Shown piece after piece: positions 1 to 11,839 of a stretch of DNA of 11,839 nt; position 1 is the first letter of the stretch, and each line of letters begins with the position of its first letter. The notes beneath the pieces are model-generated. The model was not told where the DNA came from, did not search any database, and saw only the letters and a list, made by a program, of their open reading frames with translations. Made by a program: the position numbers and the translations under genes. Location of the stretch: positions 1 to 11,839 of IMG/VR virus record IMGVR_UViG_2744054854_000008; one strand, given 5' to 3'. Source of the stretch: a virus (lineage: Duplodnaviria > Heunggongvirae > Uroviricota > Caudoviricetes).

Positions 1-585
1 CTATTCGATAATGGGTACTGTTGGCCATTCAATATCCGGTGCAGTTGTTGTATTAACACGGTTCAGCAACACCCGATATTTTTTCCAGGCTTCCAGCAAT
101 GAGGTTTCTTCCTCCGTTGCGATCTCCAGATCTACAGCATCCTGAAGTGGCGCTATATGCTCACTGGCTACCTGCATCAGGCTGTTTTTTGTTTCTTCCG
201 CCTCCCGGATCCGGAACAGTTTTTCTGCTTCCGTATCCTTCACCCAGGCTGTGCCGTTCCACTTCTGATATTCCCCTTCCGGCGATAACCAGGTGACATT
301 TTCCGGTAATGAGCCGAGTTCAGAAATAAATAACGCGTCGCCGGAAGCCACGTCATAAACCGTTTTACCCCGATGATCTTCAACGAGATGCCACGATGAC
401 TCATCACTGTTGAAAACAGCCACGAAGCCAGCTGGAATATCTGGCGGTGCAATGTCGGTACTGTTTGCTGGCAGACCTGTATGAGGCGGAATATATGCGT
501 CACCTTCACCAATAAATTCATTAGTTCCGGCCAGCAGATTATAAATTTTTATGGTCCGTGGTTGTTCACTCATTCTGAATGCCAT
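1..585 (-). CDS. tfa: Tail fiber assembly protein (lambda Tfa-like chaperone), 194 aa, complete
   Basis: Full ORF with ATG at 583-585 and stop at 1-3. Translation ([24 protein letters not shown]...EWPTVPIIE) is collinear with lambda Tfa as I recall it. Its start overlaps the stf stop (TAATG on the minus strand), the classic stf-tfa coupling. Confidence 0.9.
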
Positions 586-3500
586 TATGCAAGCCTCACA
601 ATATAGTTAAATGCGATGTTTTTGACGGTGTTTTCCGCGTTACCAGCAGCGTTAACGGTGATGGTGTGTCCATGTGAGCCAATCGCAACCGAGTGCGTAT
701 GAGCACCAATACCGACAGTATGTGCGTGTGCACCTGCGCTTGCAGCAGTACCCGATACAGAGTGCGTATGAGCGCCTGCAGAAGAAGTGTTAACACTGTA
801 TTTAGAATAATCAGGTGATCCACTTCCCGGAGCACCACTGGAACCACCTGAAACAAATGTCATCGAATGGGTATGTGCACCGGCTGAAGCAGCCGTACCG
901 CTAACACTATGGGTATGCGCACCAGTGTTATTCGTGGATTTAGTGCCGTAATCAAACGACGATGTGGTTTTCGTCCCCAAATCAGTACTGGATGCGCTGG
1001 CGCTGTGGGTATGCGATTTTATGCCGTCCTGTTCCTGAGACAATACGGCACGACCACTGGCGGGCTTGCCCTTAATCGTCCAGCCACGCATATCAGGGAT
1101 CACGCCTGACGGATAAGCGGCTGCAAGTTTCGGGTAGGCAGATTTGTCAAAAGTCTGCCCCTGCATCAGGGCATAACCAGACGGAACGGTATCTGATGGC
1201 CACGGGATTGGTGCGCCGACTGGGTAGCTTTCTGGTGGAAGATTTTTCGAGGTATAAACTTCTGCCCAGTCTTCCTCAAAACCATAACCGTCTCTTGAAG
1301 AACGGTAGAACAGACCACCATTTCTGTAATGCGCCTTCATCTGCAGGGTCCGGCAACTTCCGACTCCGGTATAGAAGTTAACCAGAATATAGCTGTCGCC
1401 AGAGCGGGTGACATTATAAGCGCCTGATTCGGCATTCCAGGGAACGCCACCATCCGCATCGGCATATGTATCCGTTGCCCTTCTGGCAAAAGCAGCCACA
1501 TGCGCGGCGGTTAAAGTGATATCAGTAGAACCATCAAATGGAACACCGGATATTTTTCTTGCAGTCTGGAGTTTTGTAGCAGTTGCAGCATTACCAGTAG
1601 TGTTCTGATTACCCGTAGTGTTTACACCTGGAAGGTTAATATTTGCAGAACCGTCGAAAACAACTCCACCGATAGATCTTGCCGTCTGCAATTTCGTGGC
1701 TGTACTTGCATTACCATTCAATGAACCAGTTAATCCACCTGTAACAGACAACGGACCTGAAACTGTTCCTCCGGTTGTTGGCAGTGCTCCAATATCTGAT
1801 GGTGTAGGTTTCTGATGTGAGCTATACATCGTATAAACAACACCATAGGTAACGCTGGAAGGCTTACTCGCTGAATATGTTGGCGAGGTATAAACAGAAA
1901 CTGACGCATTTGCAGTACAATCCCAATGGATATTTACACTCGTCGCATAATTGCCAATCTCAACGTAAATATCATATGTATCGCCGGATGTGTTGATCCA
2001 GGCGAAATTCGTTAATCCGACGGCTGTACGCTTCCACAAAGCCCCGGTAATTCCTTTGGGGTTTCCATTGCCTGCTCGTAGAACCAGTTCTGAAATGCCT
2101 GCCTGATGTGGGGAACCGACGTTGTAACCAGCGCCACCAATCAATGCGATGTAAACGATGGAACTCGTTTGTGGCATGGTAACCGTAGCCAGTTTGAACC
2201 ACCCAGCCCCGCCAGAGAAAGACATCGTTACTGAATTTAAAGTACCAATATCTTTCGGCGTTAATGTTATATCCGCAGTCAGTGCTTTTCCGTTAACTTT
2301 TCGGTTAGATGGCACCCTGCTATTCGCATTGTCATTGGCTGCTTTAACTGCTTTTGGCGTTGCGGCCAGCGATTCACTGGTGCTATCAACAGCACTGCTA
2401 AGTTTCACAACACCTTTAGTTGTAAGGCTTGCGTCTTCCATCGCAACTGCACCGGCAATCTCTTCAGCACGATCAGCAGCAGCTTCCGCACGGGTCGCAG
2501 CGGATTCAGCAGTAGTTTTGCTCTGAGATGCCGCCGTCGCACTGCCAGCAGCCTCTGTTGCCTTCGTGGATGCCGTCGTGGCGCTGCCCTTCGCTGCTGA
2601 CGCTTGTCTGGTCGCCTCATCTTTTGAAGCAGACGCCGATGAGGCCGATGACGCCGCCGAACTGGCGGACGATGCGGCAGCCGTTTTTGAGGATTCTGCG
2701 CTGGTTTCCGACGCTTTCGCGTTCGTTTCGGATGTCTTCGCTGCGGAAGCTGACCTCGCTGCTGCGCTGGCCTGTTCAGTGGCTTCGCCAGCCTTCGTTG
2801 TGGCTGTTGAAGCGGACGATGCGGCGCTTTCTGCCGATTTTCCGGCGGCGCTAGCACTGGCTGAGGCCTGCCCGGCACTTGTTGACGCTGCACTGGCAGA
2901 CGACGCAGCCGCTGTTTTTGAGCCTGCCGCAGCCGAGGCGCTCTGTCCCGCTGCCGTTTCAGAAGACCTGGCGTTTGTCTCGGACGTCTTTGCCGCCTTC
3001 GCGGAATTGCCTGCTGCCGTTGCCGAGGAAGCGGCACTACTGGCGCTTGATGATGCGTTCGTTTCTGATGATTTCGCTGCCTCTTTTGAGGCCGCCGCAT
3101 CCCGGGCTGAGGTGGCTGCTTCTGACGCCTTCGTGGTCGCGGCGGATGCAGAAGTGGCTGCTGATTGTTGTGACGCTGCCGCATTCGTTTCTGACGTTTT
3201 CGCCGTAGCGGCACTGGTAGCTGCCGCGCTTTTTGAGGACTCTGCAGCAGCAGCACTTTTCGATGCTTCACTGGCCTTTGTTGATGCCGTTCCTGCGCTG
3301 GAAGATGCTGACTGAGCCGACGACGCGGCCTGTCCGGCTGACGTGCTGGCTGCGCGTGCTGAGCCTGCAGCATCAGTCGCATGGGTTGCCGCCTCACGGG
3401 CTGATGTGCTGGCATCGCTGGCTGACTTCTTCGCGGCTGCCGTGTTCTGTGCCACCGCGGACGCGTTACGCGCCACCTCTTCCACCATCAGTTCAAAACG

Positions 3501-3812
3501 GCGCAGTGCCTCAGGACGGGCATCATCCTCCGTCATGGCACCGAGAAAATCATTCAGCGTACCGGGTCGGGAATCTTCATACACGGTGATGGTCCCGGCA
3601 TGTGACGGCGGGAATCCCTCCACCAACAGAATAACGCTGTACTGCCCGTACTCAACGTCCATGCTGTAACGCCCGGCTTCATCCGGATTTTCTGAGGCCA
3701 GCGTGTTCACCACCACCGTGGTGCTGTTACGTTTTGCTTTCAGCTGGATTGTGCAGTTCTGTACCGGTTTTCCTGTGCCGTCTTTCAGTACACCTGAAAT
3801 CTTTACTGCCAT
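585..3812 (-). CDS. stf: Side tail fiber protein (lambda Stf-like), about 1075 aa
   Basis: N-terminus [26 protein letters not shown] and C-terminus ...GAHTHSV...[15 protein letters not shown] match lambda-type Stf. Long Ala/Ser/Thr-rich central region and C-terminal GAHTH (HxH) repeats. Likely start is the ATG at 3810-3812 with GGGGTG upstream; the ORF track's start at 3818 is an upstream in-frame GTG. Stop TAA at 585-587. Confidence 0.9.
2400..3480 (-). repeat. GC-rich low-complexity repeat region inside stf, encoding reiterated Ala/Ser/Thr-rich motifs ([26 protein letters not shown])
   Basis: The translation shows many imperfect repeats of short A/S/T motifs. The DNA is dominated by GCN/TCN/ACN codons, which is why long spurious ORFs open in other frames and on the opposite strand here. 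Confidence 0.5.
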
Positions 3813-3823
3813 ATTCACCCCAC

Positions 3824-3850
3824 AAAAAAGCCCGCCTGAACCGGCGGGCT
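3824..3850 (-). terminator. Rho-independent terminator downstream of lom
   Basis: Plus-strand gcccgcc(3830-3836)/ggcgggc(3843-3849) inverted repeat with a 6-nt loop, preceded on plus by A6 (3824-3829). On the minus strand this is a GC stem followed by a T6 run, 27 nt after the lom stop. Confidence 0.6.
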
Positions 3851-3876
3851 GTCATAACACTGTGTTACCTGGCTAA

Positions 3877-4476
3877 TCAGAATTTATAACCGACACCCAC
3901 GATGAAACCGTCAGTGCGCCAGTCACCACTGCCGGAGCCTTCATAAGCAATATCAATGGCCACGGATTCGGTCGGGTTAAACTGCACGCCAGCCCCCCAC
4001 GCCAGAGACGTGTTGCTGTGGCGACCGTCATCACTTCCGGTCAGCACATCGTGCTTTTTCCCCTTGTTGTCAGTTACGCGAAGATAATCCCCGGAGAAAG
4101 TCGACACACGGCTGTAAGCCACACCCGCCATCGCATACGCGCTGAACCATTCATTCACGCGCACAGACGGCCCCGCCATTACGCTGAACCAGCGGTTACG
4201 CACGGAATCTTCATGCCAGCGGGTATCGCTGTAACGGGTAAGCTGGCGATTCTTGTCTCCTGCATAGCTGAATGACGTCACCATTCCCAGCGTGTCCGTA
4301 AACTCATAACGGTATTTCACGTTAATCCCGTTCAGATCATCGCTGCCGGAAACGTTCGTCGAGGCATGAAGATAGCCCGCGCTCAGCGTGGACTGATGTT
4401 CAGACGCCCATGCAGGCGCACCGGATACGGCCAGACAGATGGCTGCGGACAAAATGGCGGCATAAAGTTTACGCAT
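3877..4476 (-). CDS. lom: Outer membrane beta-barrel protein Lom (Ail/Lom/PagC family), 199 aa, intact
   Basis: ATG at 4474-4476 with GAGAGG Shine-Dalgarno upstream. Signal peptide [24 protein letters not shown], alternating amphipathic beta-strand pattern, C-terminal aromatic residue (…GVGYKF). Sits between J and stf as in lambda. Confidence 0.9.
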
Positions 4477-4542: not shown

Positions 4543-5910
<1,368 letters not shown>

Positions 5911-5920
5911 TTATGCCCTC

Positions 5921-5944
5921 CATTAAAAATGGGGCCGAAGCCCC
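5921..5944 (-). terminator. Rho-independent terminator downstream of the 461-aa gene
   Basis: Minus strand reads GGGGC-TTCG-GCCCC (plus 5931-5944) followed by ATTTTTAAT (plus 5921-5929), starting 10 nt after the TAA stop at 5955-5957. Confidence 0.55.
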
Positions 5945-5954
5945 GTTTGAATGT

Positions 5955-7340
5955 TTAACCAAGAATCAGACAACCATGTGCCGGCTTCACTGATGAAACA
6001 CCCCATGCCAGTCCAACTTCATAGCGCACCTGGCGATACTGACGATACAGTGCAATCTGGAACGTAATCCCTGAAATCGGGTCCGTAACATTCATTACAT
6101 CATCAGCATTATCGCCACCTTCCGGCATTGCCGGAGTACGGGATGCCAGCAGAAACGCGTTGCGATCAAACGCCATATTTGCCGTAAAGGCCCCAACAAC
6201 TGTGATGGCAGTATCATCGGCCAGATCCTGACGCAGTCCGGGCGCTGCAAGAGTAATCAGATTGCTGGTCGCTGCTGCCACAACATACTGATTCGGATCA
6301 CCAGCGAACGTAACAATCTGACCTGCAGAAATACTCCCCGAACCAGTATCAATGGAAATAAGAACATCGCCTTCTTTTTTCTCTCCATTCACGAGATAAC
6401 CAGTTGCAGCAACCTTTGGCGCTCGTTTCACACCTGCCGAACTGTGAATATTGAATCCCTCCAGACGCCCCAACACGCCCTCACGCAGTAGCTGTTCAGT
6501 GCCGGATTCATTCACTTTAAACAATACAGACTGTTTTCCGCGCAAATTAGCAATGGCAGTGGAGCCAAGCACCATCTGCAGATCGGTTGTCGGTGCGCCG
6601 TTATCCTCCAGAACCTGACGAGCCAGAGCAGCATCAGAAAGATCATCTTTAACACCAAACGGCGTTGTCCCTGCGGTTCCCACGGCGCGGGAAGCACCGA
6701 AATACAACGCACCAAGATCAGCCTCAACCTCGTTTGCAAGGGCGCGAAAAGCCTGCTTGAACTGATCAGCCAGAATGGTGTTGTAAGTCCCTGAAGGGCC
6801 AAGAGCCAGTTGTTCTTCACCATTCCATTTAACCGGTGCCATTTTGGATTTAGTAATTTTTACATCAACAGTGCCAATATTTTGATCACCGGTAAACATG
6901 CTGTTAATAGCAGTGCGGTTACCGGGCAAAACATCCGTCAACAGTTCATCAATTTCTGTCGGGATGAAGCCTGTCAGGGAGACATCAAAATCAGCATTGA
7001 TTAGGTCCGACAGCTCCATCCGCAACAGATCTTCATCCCAGCCAGCATTCATCGGCAGGCGATTATCTGCCAGGCGGTACGCCTTTTTCTGCTCATCCGT
7101 CAGGCCAGACAGAACAATGACCGGAACAGAATCCATTTTGAGCATTTCAGCCGCCATAACACGACCGTGACCCGCAATAATTTCGCCCTTTTCGTCAATC
7201 AGCACCGGATTAGTCCAGCCGAATTGCTTAATACTTTCTACCAGTTGTGCCACCTGCTCAGGGCTGTGCGTCCTGGCGTTGTGCGCATACGGTGACAATT
7301 CTTGTAATGGGCGATAGACTATCTTTAATTTCTCGCTCAT
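5955..7340 (-). CDS. ParB-like nuclease (ParB/Srx fold) N-terminal domain protein with an unassigned ~320-aa C-terminal region, 461 aa
   Basis: ATG at 7338-7340 with AAGG upstream. Residues ~8-95 (IVYRPLQELSPYAHNARTH...IIAGHGRVMAA...VPVIVLSGLTDEQKKAYRLADNRL) carry the ParB N-terminal domain pattern, with GHGR in place of the canonical GERR. The Gly/Ala/Thr/Val-rich C-terminal part has no motif I can assign. Followed by a terminator. Confidence 0.75.
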   Translation of the reverse strand: MSEKLKIVYRPLQELSPYAHNARTHSPEQVAQLVESIKQFGWTNPVLIDEKGEIIAGHGRVMAAEMLKMDSVPVIVLSGLTDEQKKAYRLADNRLPMNAGWDEDLLRMELSDLINADFDVSLTGFIPTEIDELLTDVLPGNRTAINSMFTGDQNIGTVDVKITKSKMAPVKWNGEEQLALGPSGTYNTILADQFKQAFRALANEVEADLGALYFGASRAVGTAGTTPFGVKDDLSDAALARQVLEDNGAPTTDLQMVLGSTAIANLRGKQSVLFKVNESGTEQLLREGVLGRLEGFNIHSSAGVKRAPKVAATGYLVNGEKKEGDVLISIDTGSGSISAGQIVTFAGDPNQYVVAAATSNLITLAAPGLRQDLADDTAITVVGAFTANMAFDRNAFLLASRTPAMPEGGDNADDVMNVTDPISGITFQIALYRQYRQVRYEVGLAWGVSSVKPAHGCLILG

Positions 7341-7477
7341 ACAGCCTTGCTTTATGAATAAAACGCCCCCCAGCAGCCAGTGCTACTGGGGACGGAGGGG
7401 TTGCTGGTAAAGTTAGGTATTGGATCAATGAGTGAGTCAACATAATATTAAACTCACAATTATAAATCAGCCATATA

Positions 7478-8935
7478 TTAGGAGCGCCAAAAAAAACCTG
7501 AAAACAATATAATAACAGGATAAATTTCAAGGCGACCAAGAATCATAGCTATGCACATTAAACATTTTGCAATGTCATTAAGCACTCCGAATGACGATGC
7601 AGTAGCCCCAAAACCTAATCCCATATTATTAATACATGCAGCCACTGTTGCAAATGATGTAAGAAAATCATATCCCATACCATTTAATACCAGTATAAAA
7701 AACACCGTGAAGAGAGTATAAAGAAAAAAGAAACTCCATACAGACCTCATTACACGATCTGTAACTATCTTCCCTCCTACATTTACACTCAACAACGCTC
7801 TGGGATGAGAAAGCTGATTTATCTCGTGTTTGCTTTGTTTGAAAAGTATAAGAAATCGAAGTGACTTAATTCCACCACAAGTTGAACCTATACATCCCCC
7901 AAAGAAACTTGACAACAGCAAAAACACTATCGTGTGCGTGGGCCAACTTGCATAATCCTGCGTAGCTAAACCATTATCAGTGAGCATGGAACTGGCAAGA
8001 AAAAACGAATGAATAAAACTTCCATGCAAGTCATACATACCTATATGCCAGACCTGGAAAGAGGTAACAATGATCACCCCTAAGGCTATTAACAGAAAGA
8101 AACGAAGTTCAATATCTCTGATTAAAGGTTTTATCGTTTTCCTGCTAATAACAATATACCAAAGAGTGAAGTTGAAAGCCGATAGCAGGGAAAAAGAACC
8201 AGCCACCAGCTCAACCAAATAGTTATTAAAATATCCGATACTCTCGCTATGAGTTGAGAAACCACCAAGCGAAACTGTGGAAATCCCGTGACAAATAGCA
8301 TCAAACAAAGGCATTCCTGCAAGTCTATAACAGACAATACAAGCAATACCTAATAAAGAATAAGTTATCCACAGTGTCCGTGACGTATCGGCCAGGCGGG
8401 GAGTGAGTTTGTCATCCTTAAATGGCCCCGGCATTTCTGACTGATAAAGCTTTGCACCACCAATACCCAATAATGGCAATACAGCAACCGCCAGAACAAT
8501 AACTCCTAAACCACCTATAAAATTTAACTGTGACCGATAGTACAAATATGCCCGAGGTAATGAACTAACATCATCAATTACAGTTGCTCCTGTTGTTGTT
8601 ATTCCAGAAACCCCTTCAAACAGAGCATCAATGAACGTTAAATTAAGTTCTGAGTCAATCCATAAAGGGAATGCACTAATAACAGAAAACAAAATCCAAA
8701 ACATTACAATTATAATAAACCCATCACGGGTACGTAATTGAATGCCAGATTTCTTAGTTGTATACCACGCTCCGCCACCAATGCAAAAAAATATAACGAA
8801 AGTTATAAAGAAAACGAACAGGCTTTTTTCTTTATAAAACAATGCTACAACCATTGGTGGCAACATTGAAAGACTATAGAGCCAAACCAGGAACCCACAC
8901 ATATGAGTAACAACTCTTACATGAGATGTATTCAT
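7478..8935 (-). CDS. trkG: TrkH/TrkG-family K+ uptake transporter (Rac-prophage TrkG-like), about 485 aa
   Basis: Multi-pass membrane protein. N-terminus MNTSHVRVVTHMCGFLVWLYSLSMLPP is as I recall TrkG, and the reiterated pore-loop GG(L/F)G-type motifs fit the TrkH family. Coding DNA is visibly AT-rich compared with its flanks. Start taken as the ATG at 8933-8935; an in-frame TTG at 8951-8953 with AGGTGG 6 nt upstream is an alternative (491 aa). Confidence 0.9.
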   Translation of the reverse strand: MNTSHVRVVTHMCGFLVWLYSLSMLPPMVVALFYKEKSLFVFFITFVIFFCIGGGAWYTTKKSGIQLRTRDGFIIIVMFWILFSVISAFPLWIDSELNLTFIDALFEGVSGITTTGATVIDDVSSLPRAYLYYRSQLNFIGGLGVIVLAVAVLPLLGIGGAKLYQSEMPGPFKDDKLTPRLADTSRTLWITYSLLGIACIVCYRLAGMPLFDAICHGISTVSLGGFSTHSESIGYFNNYLVELVAGSFSLLSAFNFTLWYIVISRKTIKPLIRDIELRFFLLIALGVIIVTSFQVWHIGMYDLHGSFIHSFFLASSMLTDNGLATQDYASWPTHTIVFLLLSSFFGGCIGSTCGGIKSLRFLILFKQSKHEINQLSHPRALLSVNVGGKIVTDRVMRSVWSFFFLYTLFTVFFILVLNGMGYDFLTSFATVAACINNMGLGFGATASSFGVLNDIAKCLMCIAMILGRLEIYPVIILFSGFFWRS

Positions 8936-8939
8936 ATCT

Positions 8940-9010
8940 AAATATTCTTTCAATTATAACCACCTTGCTGCAATATTATGATTATACTGTATAAAATTTA
9001 ACTCCTCTTA
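8940..9010 (-). promoter_or_regulatory. Candidate trkG promoter in an AT-rich intergenic region
   Basis: Two minus-strand TATAAT hexamers (plus attata at 8953-8958 and 8981-8986) in a 137-bp AT-rich spacer between the Rz stop and trkG. Neither has a good -35 element, so this is weakly supported. Confidence 0.2.
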
Positions 9011-9072
9011 GATCTTACTTCACTGTTCCTTATGAAACAATCATCAAAATGAATCATATTGTAGTTAAGATT

Positions 9073-9363
9073 TTACTTTAAACACTGCTCGGTTATGTAT
9101 TGCTGAGCACCTTCAAGTTGGGCCTGCATCATTACCAGTCGTTCCCGGAGGGTGAAATAATCCCGTTCAGCGGTGTCTGCCAGTCGGGGGGAGGCTGCAT
9201 TATCCACGCCGGAGGCGGTGGTGGCTTCACGCACTGACTGACAGACTGCTTTGATGTGCAACCGACGACGACCAGCGGCAACATCATCACGCAGAACATC
9301 ATTTTCAGCTTTCGCATCAGCTAACTCCTTCGTGTATTTTGCATCGAGCGCAGCAACATCACG
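9073..9363 (-). pseudogene. rzpR: N-terminally truncated Rz (i-spanin) remnant, C-terminal ~97 codons
   Basis: Hand translation gives RDVAALDAKYTKELADAKAENDVLRDDVAAGRRRLHIKAVCQSVREATTASGVDNAASPRLADTAERDYFTLRERL..., collinear with the lambda Rz C-terminal two thirds. Similarity stops abruptly upstream of codon R at 9361-9363; the signal-anchor N-terminus and a start codon are missing. Confidence 0.7.
9132..9317 (-). CDS. rzoR: Rz1-type o-spanin outer membrane lipoprotein, 61 aa, embedded in the +1 frame of the Rz remnant
   Basis: ATG at 9315-9317. MRKLKMMFCVMMLPLVVVGCTSKQ... has a lipobox (VVGC), and the Pro-rich mature part (KPPPPPAWIMQPPPDWQ) matches lambda Rz1 nearly residue for residue. 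Confidence 0.8.
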   Translation of the reverse strand: MRKLKMMFCVMMLPLVVVGCTSKQSVSQCVKPPPPPAWIMQPPPDWQTPLNGIISPSGNDW

Positions 9364-9422
9364 CGGACTTGTGCAAGTTGCCAGGAGGATCTGGAGCTTA
9401 TCAGTAAACAGAGAGGTTCGAA

Positions 9423-9830
9423 GTGAGCGAAATTAACTCTCAGGCACTGCGTGAAGCGGCAGAGAAAGCCGGTGAAGATAAGTGGCAGGCTAAAAAAATA
9501 AATGGTGATTTTTTCGTTATTCGTCACGGTAGTTATACAAGACAGCATGGCTACACATCGTATCAACCCATTGCGGAGATTGATTGTAAGCCAGTCCGGG
9601 ATTTTGTTGCCAAGGCTAATCCGGCTACCGTGCTGGAATTACTGGATGAACTGGAAGCAGCAAAAAAGCGCATTGCAGAACTGGAAGCGCGGGAAATACT
9701 GCTCCCGGAACGTAGCAGCATGCTTCATCGAACAGATTTTCACGATGATTACCAAACGGTAATGGCATACAAAGTTTCTGAAGTCATCGATGCAATCCGC
9801 GCTACTGGCATTCGCATCAAAGGAGAGTGA
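9423..9830 (+). CDS. Phage Ead/Ea22-like family protein (function unknown), 135 aa
   Basis: GTG start at 9423 with GAGAGG upstream; stop TGA at 9828-9830. Motifs QALREAAEKA and ANPATVLELLDELEAAKKRIAELE are what I associate with Ead/Ea22-like proteins of lambdoid prophages. The family assignment is from memory. Confidence 0.55.
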   Translation: MSEINSQALREAAEKAGEDKWQAKKINGDFFVIRHGSYTRQHGYTSYQPIAEIDCKPVRDFVAKANPATVLELLDELEAAKKRIAELEAREILLPERSSMLHRTDFHDDYQTVMAYKVSEVIDAIRATGIRIKGE

Positions 9831-9831
9831 G

Positions 9832-10587
9832 ATGATTCACTACCACGGTGGGCCTATTACTCCTGATACGTGCGCAATGAGAGCATGGAAAGGGCGACAT
9901 GCGTTTATCAGTTTTGCGCATTCAGGCCAGATCAATCTCGCGGCTGAATACTGTCAGTCGTTCGCGCTGGACAACGGTGCATTCACCGCCTGGAAAGCAG
10001 CTGGCAAAAACAAAATCGACTGGAGCGATTACTACGAGTTTGTTGCTCGCTGGAAGAATCACCCAGGATTCGATTTTGCCATTATCCCGGATATTATTGA
10101 TGGCGGAGAGGAGGAAAATGATGCGCTTCTGAATGAGTGGCCTCACGGAAAACTAGCTGGCGTTCCAGTGTGGCACATGAATGAAAGTGACGCGCGATTT
10201 ATTCATTTGTGCAATGAGTTTCCGCGAGTGGCTATCGGTAGTTGTGGCGACTATGACGTAAAGCGCCCAACTCTTGCGGTAGCCAGAATGAAAGACCTGA
10301 TTCGTCACATTGTTGATGGGCATGGTCAGCCGGTTACGAAACTACATGGATTGCGCATGTTAAATCCGCTGATATTCACAAAATTACCCTTAGCCAGCGC
10401 AGATAGTACGAACGTCGCTCGAAACATCGGTATTGATAAAGCCTGGTCTGGGGCTTATGCACCTGCAAGTAAAGAGACACGCGCAGCATTAATGGTAGAA
10501 CGGATTGAGGCACACAATAGCCCTGGTTCTCTTGCGTATTGTGAACAACGCGACCGCTTTGAAATGCAATTGCAACTAGCAGTTTAA
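9832..10587 (+). CDS. Hypothetical protein with TGT-like (tRNA-guanine transglycosylase fold) motifs; candidate DpdA-type 7-deazaguanine transglycosylase, 251 aa
   Basis: ATG at 9832 with AGGAG 6 nt upstream, 1 nt after the upstream stop; the track's start at 9790 is an upstream in-frame ATG. Motifs in TGT order: FALDNGAF (cf. TGT LTDSGGFQ), GFDFAIIPDI (cf. GSDIVMIFDE), HLCNEFPRVAIGSCG (cf. HVCPQIPADKPRYLMGVG), ADSTNVARN (cf. FDCVMPTRNARN, nucleophile Asp). No CxCxxC...H zinc motif. The gene call is solid; the functional call is a hypothesis. Confidence 0.6.
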   Translation: MIHYHGGPITPDTCAMRAWKGRHAFISFAHSGQINLAAEYCQSFALDNGAFTAWKAAGKNKIDWSDYYEFVARWKNHPGFDFAIIPDIIDGGEEENDALLNEWPHGKLAGVPVWHMNESDARFIHLCNEFPRVAIGSCGDYDVKRPTLAVARMKDLIRHIVDGHGQPVTKLHGLRMLNPLIFTKLPLASADSTNVARNIGIDKAWSGAYAPASKETRAALMVERIEAHNSPGSLAYCEQRDRFEMQLQLAV

Positions 10588-10597
10588 GGACTAACAA

Positions 10598-11839
10598 ATG
10601 ACCACTATTACCAAAGAACGTATTGAATTGTTCATTAAAAATCCGCTTGAAAACGGGCTTACTCGTGGCGAACAAATGGAACTGGCACGAATTGCACTGG
10701 CATCACTGGAACGCGAACTGATTCGCCACGAGCATGCCAAATGGTCTGACTCCACATTTGGCTGCGTTGGCCCCATTGGTCCACTGAAACACCTCTCAAA
10801 AGAGGCTCTGGAAGCCGCAGCCGAACCAGACGATCTCAGCGAGTGGGCTGATATGCATTTCCTGTTGTGGGATGCACAGCGCCGTGCTGGCATCAGCGAT
10901 GCTGAAATTACCGCTGCTATGGAAGATAAATTGAAGATCAACATGGAGCGCCAGTGGCCTGAACCAAAAGATGGTGAGCCTCGCTTGCACATTAAAGAAC
11001 CCGGCAACTCTCCGGTAATTCCGGATGGTTTATCCACGGTATGCGCTGAGGCTTATCAGGTTGTAGGAGTTATGGCAGATGCGCTTGGTGTATTCGGTGA
11101 TGCAGCAGTACAGAAAGTTCTGGATAACCTGTCACAGCAAAAACTTGTTCACAGAGATGTGCTGCCGTTCTCGCTTCCGGTGACTCCGGATGGTTGGATA
11201 AGCTGTAGTGAGCGAATGCCGAAAGAGGCAATAGCTGAAGGCCATATAACAACAAACCCTGTCGCTGCCACTCGCGCAGCAAAATCAGAGGTAAGGAGAT
11301 CAAGACTTACGGCTGACGAATACCTGAAAATTTATCAAGCAGCAGAATCATCACCATGTTGGCTCAGACTTGCAATGGAACTGGCTGTTGTTACCGGGCA
11401 GCGAGTTGGTGATTTATGCGAAATGAAGTGGTCTGATATCGTAGATGGATATCTTTATGTCGAGCAAAGCAAAACAGGCGTAAAAATTGCCATCCCAACA
11501 ACATTGCATGTTGATGCTCTCGGGATATCAATGAAGGAAACACTTGATAAATGCAAAAAGATTCTTGGCGGAGAAACCATAATTGCATCTACTCGTCGTG
11601 AACCGCTTTCATCCGGCACAGTATCAAGGTATTTTATGCGCGCACGAAAAGCATCAGGTCTCTCCTTCGAAGGGGATCCGCCAACCTTTCACGAGTTGCG
11701 CAGTTTGTCTGCAAGACTCTATGAGAAGCAGATAAGCGATAAATTTGCTCAACATCTTCTCGGGCATAAGTCGGACACCATGGCATCACAGTATCGTGAT
11801 GACAGAGGCAGGGAGTGGGACAAAATTGAAATCAAATAA
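10598..11839 (+). CDS. Chimeric tyrosine recombinase: non-integrase N-terminal ~209 aa fused in frame to a lambda-type Int catalytic domain (~203 aa), 413 aa
   Basis: ATG at 10598 with TAAGGA 7 nt upstream; stop TAA at 11837-11839. From residue ~210 (EAIAEGHITTN...TGQRVGDL...FHELRSLSARLY...HLLGHKSDTMASQYRDDRGREWDKIEIK) it is near-identical to the lambda Int C-terminal catalytic domain, including the R...HxxR...H...Y residues. Residues 1-209 do not resemble the Int arm-binding or core-binding domains. Confidence 0.8.
   Translation: MTTITKERIELFIKNPLENGLTRGEQMELARIALASLERELIRHEHAKWSDSTFGCVGPIGPLKHLSKEALEAAAEPDDLSEWADMHFLLWDAQRRAGISDAEITAAMEDKLKINMERQWPEPKDGEPRLHIKEPGNSPVIPDGLSTVCAEAYQVVGVMADALGVFGDAAVQKVLDNLSQQKLVHRDVLPFSLPVTPDGWISCSERMPKEAIAEGHITTNPVAATRAAKSEVRRSRLTADEYLKIYQAAESSPCWLRLAMELAVVTGQRVGDLCEMKWSDIVDGYLYVEQSKTGVKIAIPTTLHVDALGISMKETLDKCKKILGGETIIASTRREPLSSGTVSRYFMRARKASGLSFEGDPPTFHELRSLSARLYEKQISDKFAQHLLGHKSDTMASQYRDDRGREWDKIEIK

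Follow-up and report, generated by a model that had tools for sequence, protein, structure and literature searches.

The trkG cassette as probable cargo of lambdoid prophages: a potassium transporter gene in a prophage remnant at the lambda attachment region

The trkG gene of Escherichia coli K-12 is located in the rac prophage and has a low GC content (38% vs 53%), and its product mediates Na+-dependent K+ uptake in a manner that depends on TrkA (PMC9898762). TrkG supports growth and complements the loss of TrkH (PMC9898762). In K-12 W3110, mutation of hns, alone or together with stpA, raises the level of trkG mRNA, which accords with ChIP-chip data, and the gene is not silenced (PMC9898762). 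A genomic SELEX study assigned a constitutive sigma-70 promoter to trkG in K-12 (PMC5811629).

Here the trkG-containing region of a prophage remnant was analysed and compared with these systems. The window, by which is meant the whole stretch of 11,839 nt, contains at 7341-9072 what is very probably a trkG cassette carried as cargo by lambdoid prophages. A previous sequence-only reading of the same DNA had recognized trkG. That reading is correct but ordinary, as the gene, its prophage site, low GC, promoter, transport activity and H-NS repression have all been published; the context added here is that the cassette is not restricted to Rac.

The transporter gene and its prophage neighbours

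The protein encoded by trkG matches the Pfam family TrkH (PF02386) with E = 5e-145 and 484 bits (cut-off 27), the alignment extending over profile positions 3-500 of 502, and it also passes the threshold of the TIGR00933 subfamily (415 bits vs 331). Residues 7-485 align end to end with residues 4-485 of the Vibrio parahaemolyticus TrkH structures 4j9u and 3pjz (E = 1e-120), and the pore-loop (selectivity filter) glycine segments TTTGAT, GGLG, LGGFS and GSTCGG pair with their TrkH counterparts. These data agree with the earlier assignment of the protein to the TrkH family of K+ transporters and, as predicted from sequence, trkG is the membrane subunit of a Trk K+ uptake system. Within the family the protein is assigned as the TrkG paralogue and not as TrkH proper. 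It scores below the cut-off of the TrkH equivalog NF008020 (450 bits vs 866) and displays 41% identity to K-12 TrkH, while the GC content of the host paralogue trkH is 53.1% vs 37.9% for trkG. The RefSeq gene name is trkG (protein WP_001097895.1), and the window copy differs from K-12 trkG by four synonymous and zero nonsynonymous substitutions.

These comparisons bear on the view, suggested in passing in PMC5811629, that trkG is a duplicate of the host trkH that was captured by a phage together with its promoter. In favour of this view, TrkG and TrkH are members of one protein family, each functions with TrkA, and trkG has been termed ‘closely related' to trkH (PMC5811629). The protein identity, equivalog score and GC difference given above nevertheless make such a capture scarcely credible, as do closer homologues (61-79% identical) that form a separate TrkG-type group in the Enterobacterales.

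The features of the locus are listed in Table 1. The Rz remnant upstream of trkG is 91% identical to lambda Rz and, from 9368 downwards, 99.7% identical to K-12 rzpR; its homology to all relatives ends at 9368/9369, which marks a deletion junction. Downstream of trkG lies the 5' part of ynaK, the counterpart of which opens the packaging/head module in complete relatives. This fragment is fused in frame to the coat gene remnant, such that a single ORF of 461 aa (5955-7340) contains both the Pfam ParB_N and P22_CoatProtein domains. The fusion reflects a deletion of ∼7.5 kb, placed between positions 22153 and 29689 of locus L004 in the comparison with enterotoxigenic E. coli (ETEC) H10407. The identity of trkG and of its flanking genes fits the proposal that a non-phage cargo gene occupies the boundary between lysis and morphogenesis functions, following Rz/Rz1 and preceding the head region. 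The right-hand limit of 9131 proposed for the block requires correction, as a block of this extent would include the final 59 nt of Rz, which ends with a stop codon at 9073; the real spacer is 8936-9072.

Table 1. Features of the trkG locus and its surroundings (window coordinates)
Feature	Position	Strand	Evidence or remark
P22-type major capsid (coat) gene remnant	5955..7052	-	RefSeq; 99.8% identity (983 nt) with the coat gene of H10407
ynaK' (5' part of ParB/Srx-like gene)	7083..7340	-	Pfam ParB_N; downstream of trkG
Intrinsic-terminator-like hairpin	7364..7394	-	3' of trkG; terminator scan
trkG CDS	7478..8935	-	ATG start, 485 aa; Pfam TrkH, RefSeq name trkG
Upstream spacer	8936..9072	-	25.5% GC; candidate -10, Shine-Dalgarno, possible TTG start
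Possible TTG start	8953	-	18 nt 5' of the ATG at 8935; would give 491 aa
Shine-Dalgarno AAGGTGG	8966-8960	-	Upstream spacer
Candidate -10 TATAAT	8986-8981	-	Hexamer search of upstream spacer
Rz' (i-spanin 3' part, N-terminus missing)	9073..9363	-	RefSeq ‘lysis protein, incomplete'; end of lysis cassette, directly upstream of trkG
Rz1 (o-spanin lipoprotein), nested in Rz'	9132..9317	-	Pfam Rz1 PF06085, E = 2e-19
Lambda-type integrase 3' part, abuts ybhC	11222..11839	+	RefSeq context bioA-ybhB ... ybhC; 99.2% to H10407 integrase

Beyond the Rz junction, positions 9369-11839 contain a TraR/DksA fragment, an ea22-like gene, a hypothetical gene and fragments of a dATP/dGTP pyrophosphohydrolase gene and of the lambda-type integrase gene. 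On the chromosome the element is flanked by bioA-ybhB, plus a diguanylate cyclase gene, on one side and by ybhC on the other, which is the lambda attachment region, and, because the 3' part of the integrase gene abuts ybhC, it is positioned at the lambda attachment site and not at the Rac site. The carrier is a remnant of ∼12 kb that has lost the early region, the packaging genes and most tail genes, with trkG remaining intact. In both ETEC H10407 and the phage record ON470595 the gene order is Q-S-R-Rz-trkG-ParB-TerS-TerL-portal-coat-tail. The carriers would constitute a family of lambdoid prophages in which the cassette follows the lysis genes S-R-Rz/Rz1 and precedes those for packaging, namely ParB-like ynaK, TerS and TerL.

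BLASTN searches against K-12 Rac revealed 99.6-99.7% DNA identity over 7087-9368 (Rz-trkG-ynaK), with matches confined to this segment and to 22-4274 (in pieces). The locus shares with K-12 Rac trkG (b1363) the protein, the upstream spacer, GC content, orientation and neighbours, with trkG preceded by a truncated Rz/Rz1 and followed by ynaK. A Rac-type late module (Rz-trkG-ynaK ... lom-stf-tfa) is present, the tail-fibre and lom parts of which are 94-98% identical to K-12 Rac. In contrast, none of the Rac early genes intR, recET, racC, kilR, sieB, racR and ydaS-W was found in the window; where K-12 Rac has intR, recET and racR, the element studied here has the lambda-type integrase fragment. 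The two elements also differ in chromosomal location, K-12 Rac lying between ttcA and ttcC/uspF, and in their deletions: the window joins Rz' to the TraR/DksA fragment and ynaK' to the coat gene, while K-12 has ydaW-rzpR and ynaK-ydaY. The proposed match to trkG of Rac therefore holds for the gene, which is K-12 trkG with zero amino-acid differences, but not for the carrier, a lambdoid prophage at the lambda attachment site. On the basis of its attachment site and early genes the element was rejected as a Rac prophage. Shared descent with a degraded element at the Rac site was likewise rejected, as the end-points of the ynaK'/coat deletion differ from those in the Rac-site relative ECCWS199, indicating that the deletions were independent.

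Base composition and signals for expression

The GC content of trkG is 37.9% overall and 31.9% at third codon positions, and that of the block 7341-9072 is 37.3% compared with 50.8% in the rest of the window. The minimum-GC stretch of 1732 nt across the whole window begins at 7408, and the block lies ∼4.5 sd under stretches of equal length that do not overlap it (mean GC 0.519, sd 0.032, minimum 0.475). Synonymous codon usage also differs between trkG and the flanking genes (chi2 = 100.7, df 41, p = 6e-7), with ATA used 35 vs 6 times and TTA 33 vs 7 times per 1000 codons. Both measures are thus in accord with the earlier statement that the coding DNA is more AT-rich than its flanks. TpA steps occur at 86 per kb in the trkG block vs 40, and A/T runs of at least 7 at 13.3 vs 4.0 per kb.

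The description of trkG as flanked by AT-rich spacers with TATAAT-like hexamers was accurate only in part. Two perfect TATAAT hexamers are present and the upstream spacer is AT-rich (Table 1). The downstream spacer, 7341-7477, has a GC content of 42.3% and is only partly AT-rich because it contains the GC-rich terminator hairpin, and promoter sites are not above the level in shuffled sequence, a consensus scan of 6900-9700 returning 5 sites vs 6.2 expected. The best -10 candidate is not accompanied by a good -35 element, as the best -35 candidates match TTGACA at 2-3 of 6 positions. The second TATAAT hexamer (8958-8953) is probably not the trkG promoter, since it lies downstream of the likely Shine-Dalgarno sequence and shares one base with the likely TTG start. 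The -10 hexamer and the Shine-Dalgarno sequence are kept in the Escherichia albertii allele, and AGTATAAT is kept in Escherichia fergusonii too. The longest mechanical ORF for trkG begins at the TTG, extends to 8953 and comprises 491 aa. The conserved Shine-Dalgarno sequence together with the TTG suggests a product of this length, and the true start codon of trkG may be the TTG 18 nt upstream of the ATG, yielding a 491-aa protein.

At the 3' side of the gene, the terminator-like hairpin has a predicted RNA fold energy of -22.5 kcal/mol (z = -2.6 vs shuffles) and is directly followed by a UUUUAUU tract (7363-7357), which makes it a convincing terminator. An Rfam scan of 7200-9400 at E <= 1 returned a single chance snoRNA match at 19 bits, and no riboswitch or known sRNA was detected in the spacers. 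Collectively, the AT-rich promoter region, Shine-Dalgarno sequence, ORF and terminator hairpin would make the cassette a self-contained transcription unit.

The upstream spacer is identical between the window and K-12, and K-12-like regulation of the window copy is inferred from this identity. As in xenogeneic DNA repressed by H-NS, the region is AT-rich and abounds in TpA steps and A/T runs. The TCGATAAATT motif has near-matches at a density of 2.3 per kb in the block vs 0.9, which corresponds to only four sites, each with two mismatches. With respect to the possible H-NS silencing raised by the sequence-only reading, partial repression by H-NS/StpA has been published for K-12 but the gene is not silenced (PMC9898762). 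In light of the K-12 literature, trkG would be expressed from the repressed prophage, with H-NS/StpA bound to the AT-rich DNA damping but not abolishing expression, and its product would act as the membrane subunit of a second Trk system, which uses the host TrkA to mediate Na+-dependent K+ uptake.

The organization of the locus could also be viewed as serving mainly the phage, in which case late read-through antiterminated by Q would boost K+ uptake during the lytic cycle, or counter K+ loss upon superinfection, and any benefit to the lysogen would be secondary. In complete prophages trkG immediately follows the lysis genes S-R-Rz and shares their orientation; all of the records found with this ParB/terminase module also have trkG, and linkage to the Rz 3' end persists in the divergent E. 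albertii allele. A primarily lytic role is, however, very improbable. The gene has a candidate promoter region of its own, its expression has been published in uninduced K-12 with a defective Rac, it is retained in remnants that are incapable of lytic growth, and there is no experimental hint of such a function.

Distribution, constraint and origin of the cassette

The gene had been described as inserted. A query for the empty site, in which the Rz 3' end was joined to the 5' part of ynaK (737 nt), identified no trkG-less Rz/ynaK junction in 5426 complete E. coli genomes (megablast) or in the phage collection (blastn), a result that may reflect limited sampling. All ten records in the phage collection with a ParB gene of this type (10/10) also carry trkG and, among close relatives, a search at the protein level with the complete ParB-like gene returned only trkG-bearing records. 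As no junction without trkG was found, the boundaries of an insertion are not definable by comparison. The description as inserted thus goes beyond the data: insertion into a pre-existing phage backbone is suggested by base composition alone.

At a coverage threshold of >=80%, 1542 of the 5426 complete E. coli genomes carry the cassette, a count that is inflated by many laboratory derivatives of K-12 and B, and 1515 of the matching records are >=99% identical; ∼71% of the genomes are without it. The adjacent packaging module was found at >=80% coverage in 761 genomes, which are not necessarily a subset of the 1542 with trkG, and so the number of genomes with the cassette is ∼2x that with the neighbouring packaging genes. 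Together with one lambdoid late-gene module it is found at several chromosomal sites and, in Klebsiella, Citrobacter and Enterobacter, also on conjugative plasmids. A Shigella flexneri locus (L023) was initially considered a divergent allele (57% in the best segment); BLASTN revealed 94.8% DNA identity and a frameshift, and the locus was thus classified as a pseudogene and not as a second lineage.

Comparison of trkG with the E. albertii allele yielded a dN/dS of 0.046 at dS = 0.94 and, as judged from this ratio, trkG is under strong purifying selection. This value is pertinent to the proposal that trkG is a neutral hitch-hiker, a still-intact leftover of phage decay that serves no selected function in either the host or the phage. 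The remnant is heavily deleted and most genes neighbouring trkG are pseudogenes, the frameshifted S. flexneri copy indicates that some lineages tolerate loss of the gene, and the majority of complete E. coli genomes do not have the cassette. Neutrality is nevertheless improbable in view of the low dN/dS maintained across a dS of 0.94, and is difficult to reconcile with the absence of amino-acid changes relative to K-12 despite prophages that have different sites and deletions, with the twofold excess of the cassette over the adjacent packaging genes, and with the published capacity of TrkG to support growth and replace TrkH (PMC9898762). That trkG is commoner than the packaging genes is consistent with its surviving phage decay, and the gene would behave as lysogenic-conversion (‘moron'-type) cargo that is kept by the host once the phage has decayed.

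The origin of the gene was explored through its homologues. The nearest relatives of TrkG, identified in a contig scan and a search of 5.8 billion proteins, are 61-79% identical and occur only in Enterobacterales. Members of this TrkG-type group were found in E. fergusonii, Citrobacter, Pectobacterium, Pantoea, Enterobacter, Buttiauxella, Serratia, Xenorhabdus and Morganella, and several are in non-phage chromosomal contexts. The genes for the nearest homologues have GC contents of 42-57%. In Enterobacter (57/58%), Buttiauxella (51/52%) and Morganella (47-49%) these values are close to those of the flanks, while the Pectobacterium-like homologue has a gene GC of 43% vs 50% in its flanks. No low-GC donor was identified in either the contig scan or the protein search, and the claim that trkG was acquired from such a donor is unsupported, the closest homologues being in other Enterobacterales at 42-57% GC.

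The E. coli and E. albertii genes display near-saturated synonymous divergence, yet both have a third-position GC of ∼32%, and both alleles are linked to the Rz 3' end. It is conceivable, although doubtful, that low GC is being maintained in a gene that phages have carried for a long time, and is not the fading mark of a recent low-GC donor. If so, selection or a phage-specific mutational regime would keep the cassette AT-rich, and the AT-richness could allow H-NS to dose a transporter that also leaks Na+. More generally, trkG illustrates in textbook fashion the domestication of a prophage cargo gene, and is a possible test case for whether the AT-richness of such genes is maintained or ameliorated.

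Comparison with ETEC H10407, TrkH and morons

The prophage of ETEC H10407 encodes the same TrkG protein (WP_001097895.1), is 99.7% identical to the window across Rz-trkG-ynaK and occupies the same site beside ybhC. It is near-complete, having retained the early region, the lysis genes, a full ParB gene and the terminase, portal, head and tail genes. Two segments of H10407 are missing from the window, one of ∼14 kb that separates the TraR/DksA-like gene from Rz and one of ∼7.5 kb that separates ynaK from the coat gene, as are most tail genes. The integrase-proximal genes of the window (the ea22-like gene and the dATP/dGTP pyrophosphohydrolase fragment) differ from those of H10407. TrkH (E. coli b3849 and the V. 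parahaemolyticus protein) belongs to the same family as TrkG, with a whole-length, fold-level alignment in which all four pore-loop glycine regions align. The E. coli protein is set apart by its 41% identity to TrkG, its 53.1% vs 37.9% gene GC and the position of TrkG under the TrkH equivalog cut-off.

Lambda bor sits near the lysis/packaging boundary, as trkG does. Bor and lom are examples of lambda morons, as defined in PMC3594210, with which trkG shares the status of an extra gene that is dispensable for phage growth and has a composition unlike its neighbours, along with a candidate promoter region of its own, a terminator and expression from the prophage. No sister phage without trkG was found to supply the ‘more DNA than the relative' comparison by which morons are defined. 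The gene is also co-oriented with the late operon, and its product is a housekeeping-type ion transporter and not a surface or virulence factor.

Identity and composition of trkG

The gene at 7478-8935 is E. coli trkG, a member of the TrkH family, as a sequence-only reading of the window had correctly reasoned. Its product is a full-length TrkH-family protein (Pfam PF02386, E = 5e-145, profile positions 3-500 of 502) that scores above the TIGR00933 cut-off and well below the TrkH equivalog cut-off, and its alignment with the solved Vibrio TrkH runs over the full length (E = 1e-120) and takes in all four glycine segments of the pore loops. TrkH of K-12, its paralogue, shares 41% identity with it and is encoded by a gene of 53.1% GC. 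Between 9368 and a point below 7200, the window shares ~99.7% identity with the cryptic Rac prophage of K-12; the coding sequence differs from K-12 b1363 at 4 synonymous and 0 nonsynonymous positions, and the spacer upstream of trkG is identical.

The AT-richness reported for trkG is real and far beyond chance. The gene has a GC content of 37.9% (31.9% at third codon positions), and the block 7341-9072 one of 37.3% compared with 50.8% in the remaining window. Equal-size stretches elsewhere in the window have a mean GC of 0.519 (s.d. 0.032), and the GC minimum among all 1732-nt stretches starts at 7408. The codon-usage comparison that had been proposed also separates trkG from the pooled flanking genes (synonymous codons, chi2 = 100.7, df 41, p = 6e-7), with ATA and TTA ~5 times commoner in trkG. 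According to PMC9898762, the difference of 38% versus 53% GC and the rac location have been the accepted case for a horizontal origin since Schloesser et al. 1991. The centre of the tail-fibre gene (2400-3600; 59-63% GC, strongly negative AT skew, to -0.47) is a compositional outlier opposite in direction to trkG.

Both flanking spacers had been described as AT-rich. This holds for the upstream spacer (8936-9072, 25.5% GC), but only partly for the downstream one, where a GC-rich hairpin (7394-7364, -22.5 kcal/mol) raises the GC content to 42.3%. The hairpin, followed by UUUUAUU, looks like the trkG terminator. The right edge proposed for the AT-rich segment, 9131, lies too far out, as it takes in the final 59 nt of Rz. 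The block displays AT-rich features preferred by H-NS, with 86 TpA steps per kb versus 40 and 13.3 long A/T runs per kb versus 4.0. K-12 trkG shows derepression in hns and hns stpA mutants, yet its silencing is incomplete (PMC9898762); the suggested H-NS silencing is thus borne out for the K-12 copy as partial repression only.

Expression signals and start codon

The TATAAT-like hexamers pointed out in the sequence-only reading are present in the upstream region. A perfect TATAAT at 8986-8981 is kept in the E. albertii allele, and AGTATAAT also occurs in E. fergusonii. The second TATAAT (8958-8953) is unlikely to be a promoter because it sits between a Shine-Dalgarno sequence and a TTG codon, overlapping this likely start codon by one base. 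A consensus promoter scan revealed no excess of promoter-like sites (5 found versus 6.2 expected). Genomic SELEX identified a constitutive sigma-70 promoter at K-12 trkG, which has the same spacer (PMC5811629). In K-12, TrkG mediates Na+-dependent K+ uptake and takes up Na+ as well, TrkA is common to TrkG and TrkH, and the two genes trkG and trkH have similar expression levels (PMC9898762).

The Shine-Dalgarno sequence, AAGGTGG (8966-8960, minus strand), lies 6 nt before the TTG at 8953, and the annotated ATG follows 18 nt further downstream of that TTG. Five homologues, including those from E. albertii, E. fergusonii, a Pectobacterium-like source and Enterobacter, have TTG or GTG preceded by a Shine-Dalgarno sequence at exactly the same position; in two of them the codon aligned with the annotated ATG encodes Ile or Leu and is not a start. 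As the upstream signals are conserved and no Shine-Dalgarno sequence precedes the annotated ATG, the TrkG product may comprise 491 rather than 485 amino acids; the likely TTG start is a mildly new point.

The carrier: a lambdoid prophage remnant at the lambda attachment site

The match to Rac that had been proposed applies to the gene but not to its carrier. The full window has a 99.9% match in E. coli 2018-10-1CC (NZ_AP021894.1, 3152906-3164744), where, with a diguanylate cyclase gene, it fills the gap from bioA-ybhB to ybhC. The same position in the enterotoxigenic strain H10407 holds a near-complete lambdoid prophage with its integrase adjoining ybhC. The ttcA site, intR, recET and racR are absent from the carrier in the window. 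The carrier is not Rac but a degraded lambdoid prophage that occupies the lambda attachment site and has a late module of the Rac type; a carrier at this site is a mildly new point. The 443-aa sensor-domain diguanylate cyclase gene (13596-14927 of the retrieved locus L001) lies just beyond the left end of the window, flanked by ybhB and by the tfaR end of the remnant; it could be additional cargo of the prophage or an island specific to the strain at this site.

Features of the prophage remnant in the window
Feature	Position	Strand
tfaR	1-585	-
Tail-fibre gene	585-3812	-
lom	3877-4476	-
J fragment	4543-5889	-
P22-type coat remnant	5955-7052	-
ynaK, ParB-like, truncated	7083-7340	-
trkG	7478-8935	-
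Rz, truncated	9073-9363	-
Rz1, within Rz	9132-9317	-
TraR/DksA fragment, ea22-like gene, hypothetical gene, dATP/dGTP pyrophosphohydrolase fragment, integrase 3' part	9364 onwards	+

The H10407 prophage encodes the same TrkG protein (WP_001097895.1) in the order int-xis...Q-porin-S-R-Rz-trkG-ParB(263 aa)-hyp-hyp-TerS-TerL-portal...coat...tail...J. Phage record ON470595 has this gene order with Rac-type immunity and replication genes. These orders place trkG where the lysis cassette meets the packaging genes, as first suggested, and co-oriented with the late operon.

Deletion end-points were placed by BLAST of the window against the H10407 prophage. Window 6920-9368 corresponds to H10407 from the middle of Rz across trkG and the initial 421 nt of ParB, and 5912-6894 to the final 983 nt of the coat gene. 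Because only the ParB start and the coat end are matched, the packaging and head genes have been deleted; the ~7.5-kb loss, with its junction near 6895-6919, took out the terminase, portal and scaffold genes. It left an in-frame ynaK'-coat' fusion, a single 461-aa ORF (5955-7340, minus strand) in which the ynaK ParB-like N-terminus runs into the C-terminal portion of a coat protein of the P22 type. In ECCWS199, a relative at the Rac site, the ynaK'/coat deletion has different end-points and its decay is therefore independent. At 9364-9369 truncated Rz (minus strand) is fused to the TraR/DksA-like fragment (plus strand). As the two abut at 9368/9369, the whole early region is gone, and with it the genes for immunity and replication plus Q, S and R (~14 kb relative to H10407). 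The integrase segment (11224-11839), 99.2% identical to that of H10407, stops at the final base of the window, adjoining ybhC. A 413-aa ORF (10598-11839, plus strand) combines a dATP/dGTP pyrophosphohydrolase domain (residues 42-137) with a phage integrase catalytic domain (236-402); it is probably another deletion fusion, which RefSeq splits into separate pseudogene fragments.

Origin, spread and constraint

The homologues nearer to TrkG than TrkH form a TrkG-type group across Enterobacterales, represented, by source-given names, in E. fergusonii (79% identity), Citrobacter (77%), Pectobacterium (75%), Pantoea (73%), Enterobacter (70-72%), Buttiauxella (68%), Serratia (61-66%), and Morganella and Xenorhabdus (61-63%). 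The three homologue contexts inspected are all chromosomal and not phage-like, with parC (Enterobacter), ychF (Pectobacterium-like contig) or porin genes (E. fergusonii) as neighbours. The sampled homologues have gene GC contents of 42-57%, and the low-GC donor that had been postulated was not found among them and is not supported. The simplest source for trkG, for all its very low GC, is a different member of this order.

The E. albertii NBRC 107761 allele (locus L007, 4500-9600; 93% protein and 84% DNA identity) is located in an AT-rich islet with yebY on one side and a pphA-like gene and rsmF on the other, adjoining an NleF-like effector gene. Its homology to the window covers only 7474-9115, a segment made up of trkG, the spacer upstream of it and the 42 nt at the 3' end of Rz. 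The two alleles differ with dS = 0.94 and dN/dS = 0.046, while third-position GC is ~32% in both. Since both alleles have kept their AT-richness despite near-saturated synonymous divergence, a mildly new point, this composition may be a maintained property and not a fading inherited one.

The 1732-nt cassette was present at ≥80% coverage, nearly always in single copy, in 1542 of 5426 complete E. coli genomes, and the adjacent packaging module (ParB 3' end to TerL) in only 761 at the same coverage. Roughly half or more of the trkG carriers have therefore lost the adjoining phage genes; laboratory derivatives of K-12 and B inflate both counts. The matching records include 1515 at ≥99% identity. 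In Shigella flexneri SFBU0723 (L023, 5552-7979) Rz-trkG-ynaK is retained at 94.8% DNA identity with trkG frameshifted, an example of trkG loss in Shigella. The cassette also occurs on 15 plasmids (12 predicted to be conjugative) from E. coli, Klebsiella, Enterobacter and Citrobacter; this spread is again mildly new. In the plasmid inspected, an IncA plasmid of Klebsiella quasipneumoniae (NZ_CP055012.1, locus L032, 1586-11600; cassette 99.4% identical), a prophage remnant, int-xis...TraR followed by Rz-trkG-tfa', lies ~2.3 kb from an IS26 transposase gene, an architecture much like that in the window.

All proposals of the sequence-only reading except the low-GC donor have already been published. 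An empty Rz/ynaK junction was absent from the E. coli genome and phage collections searched, precluding the comparison with a trkG-less relative that defines a moron. With candidate transcription signals of its own, a foreign composition and, in K-12, expression from a prophage, trkG resembles a phage moron.
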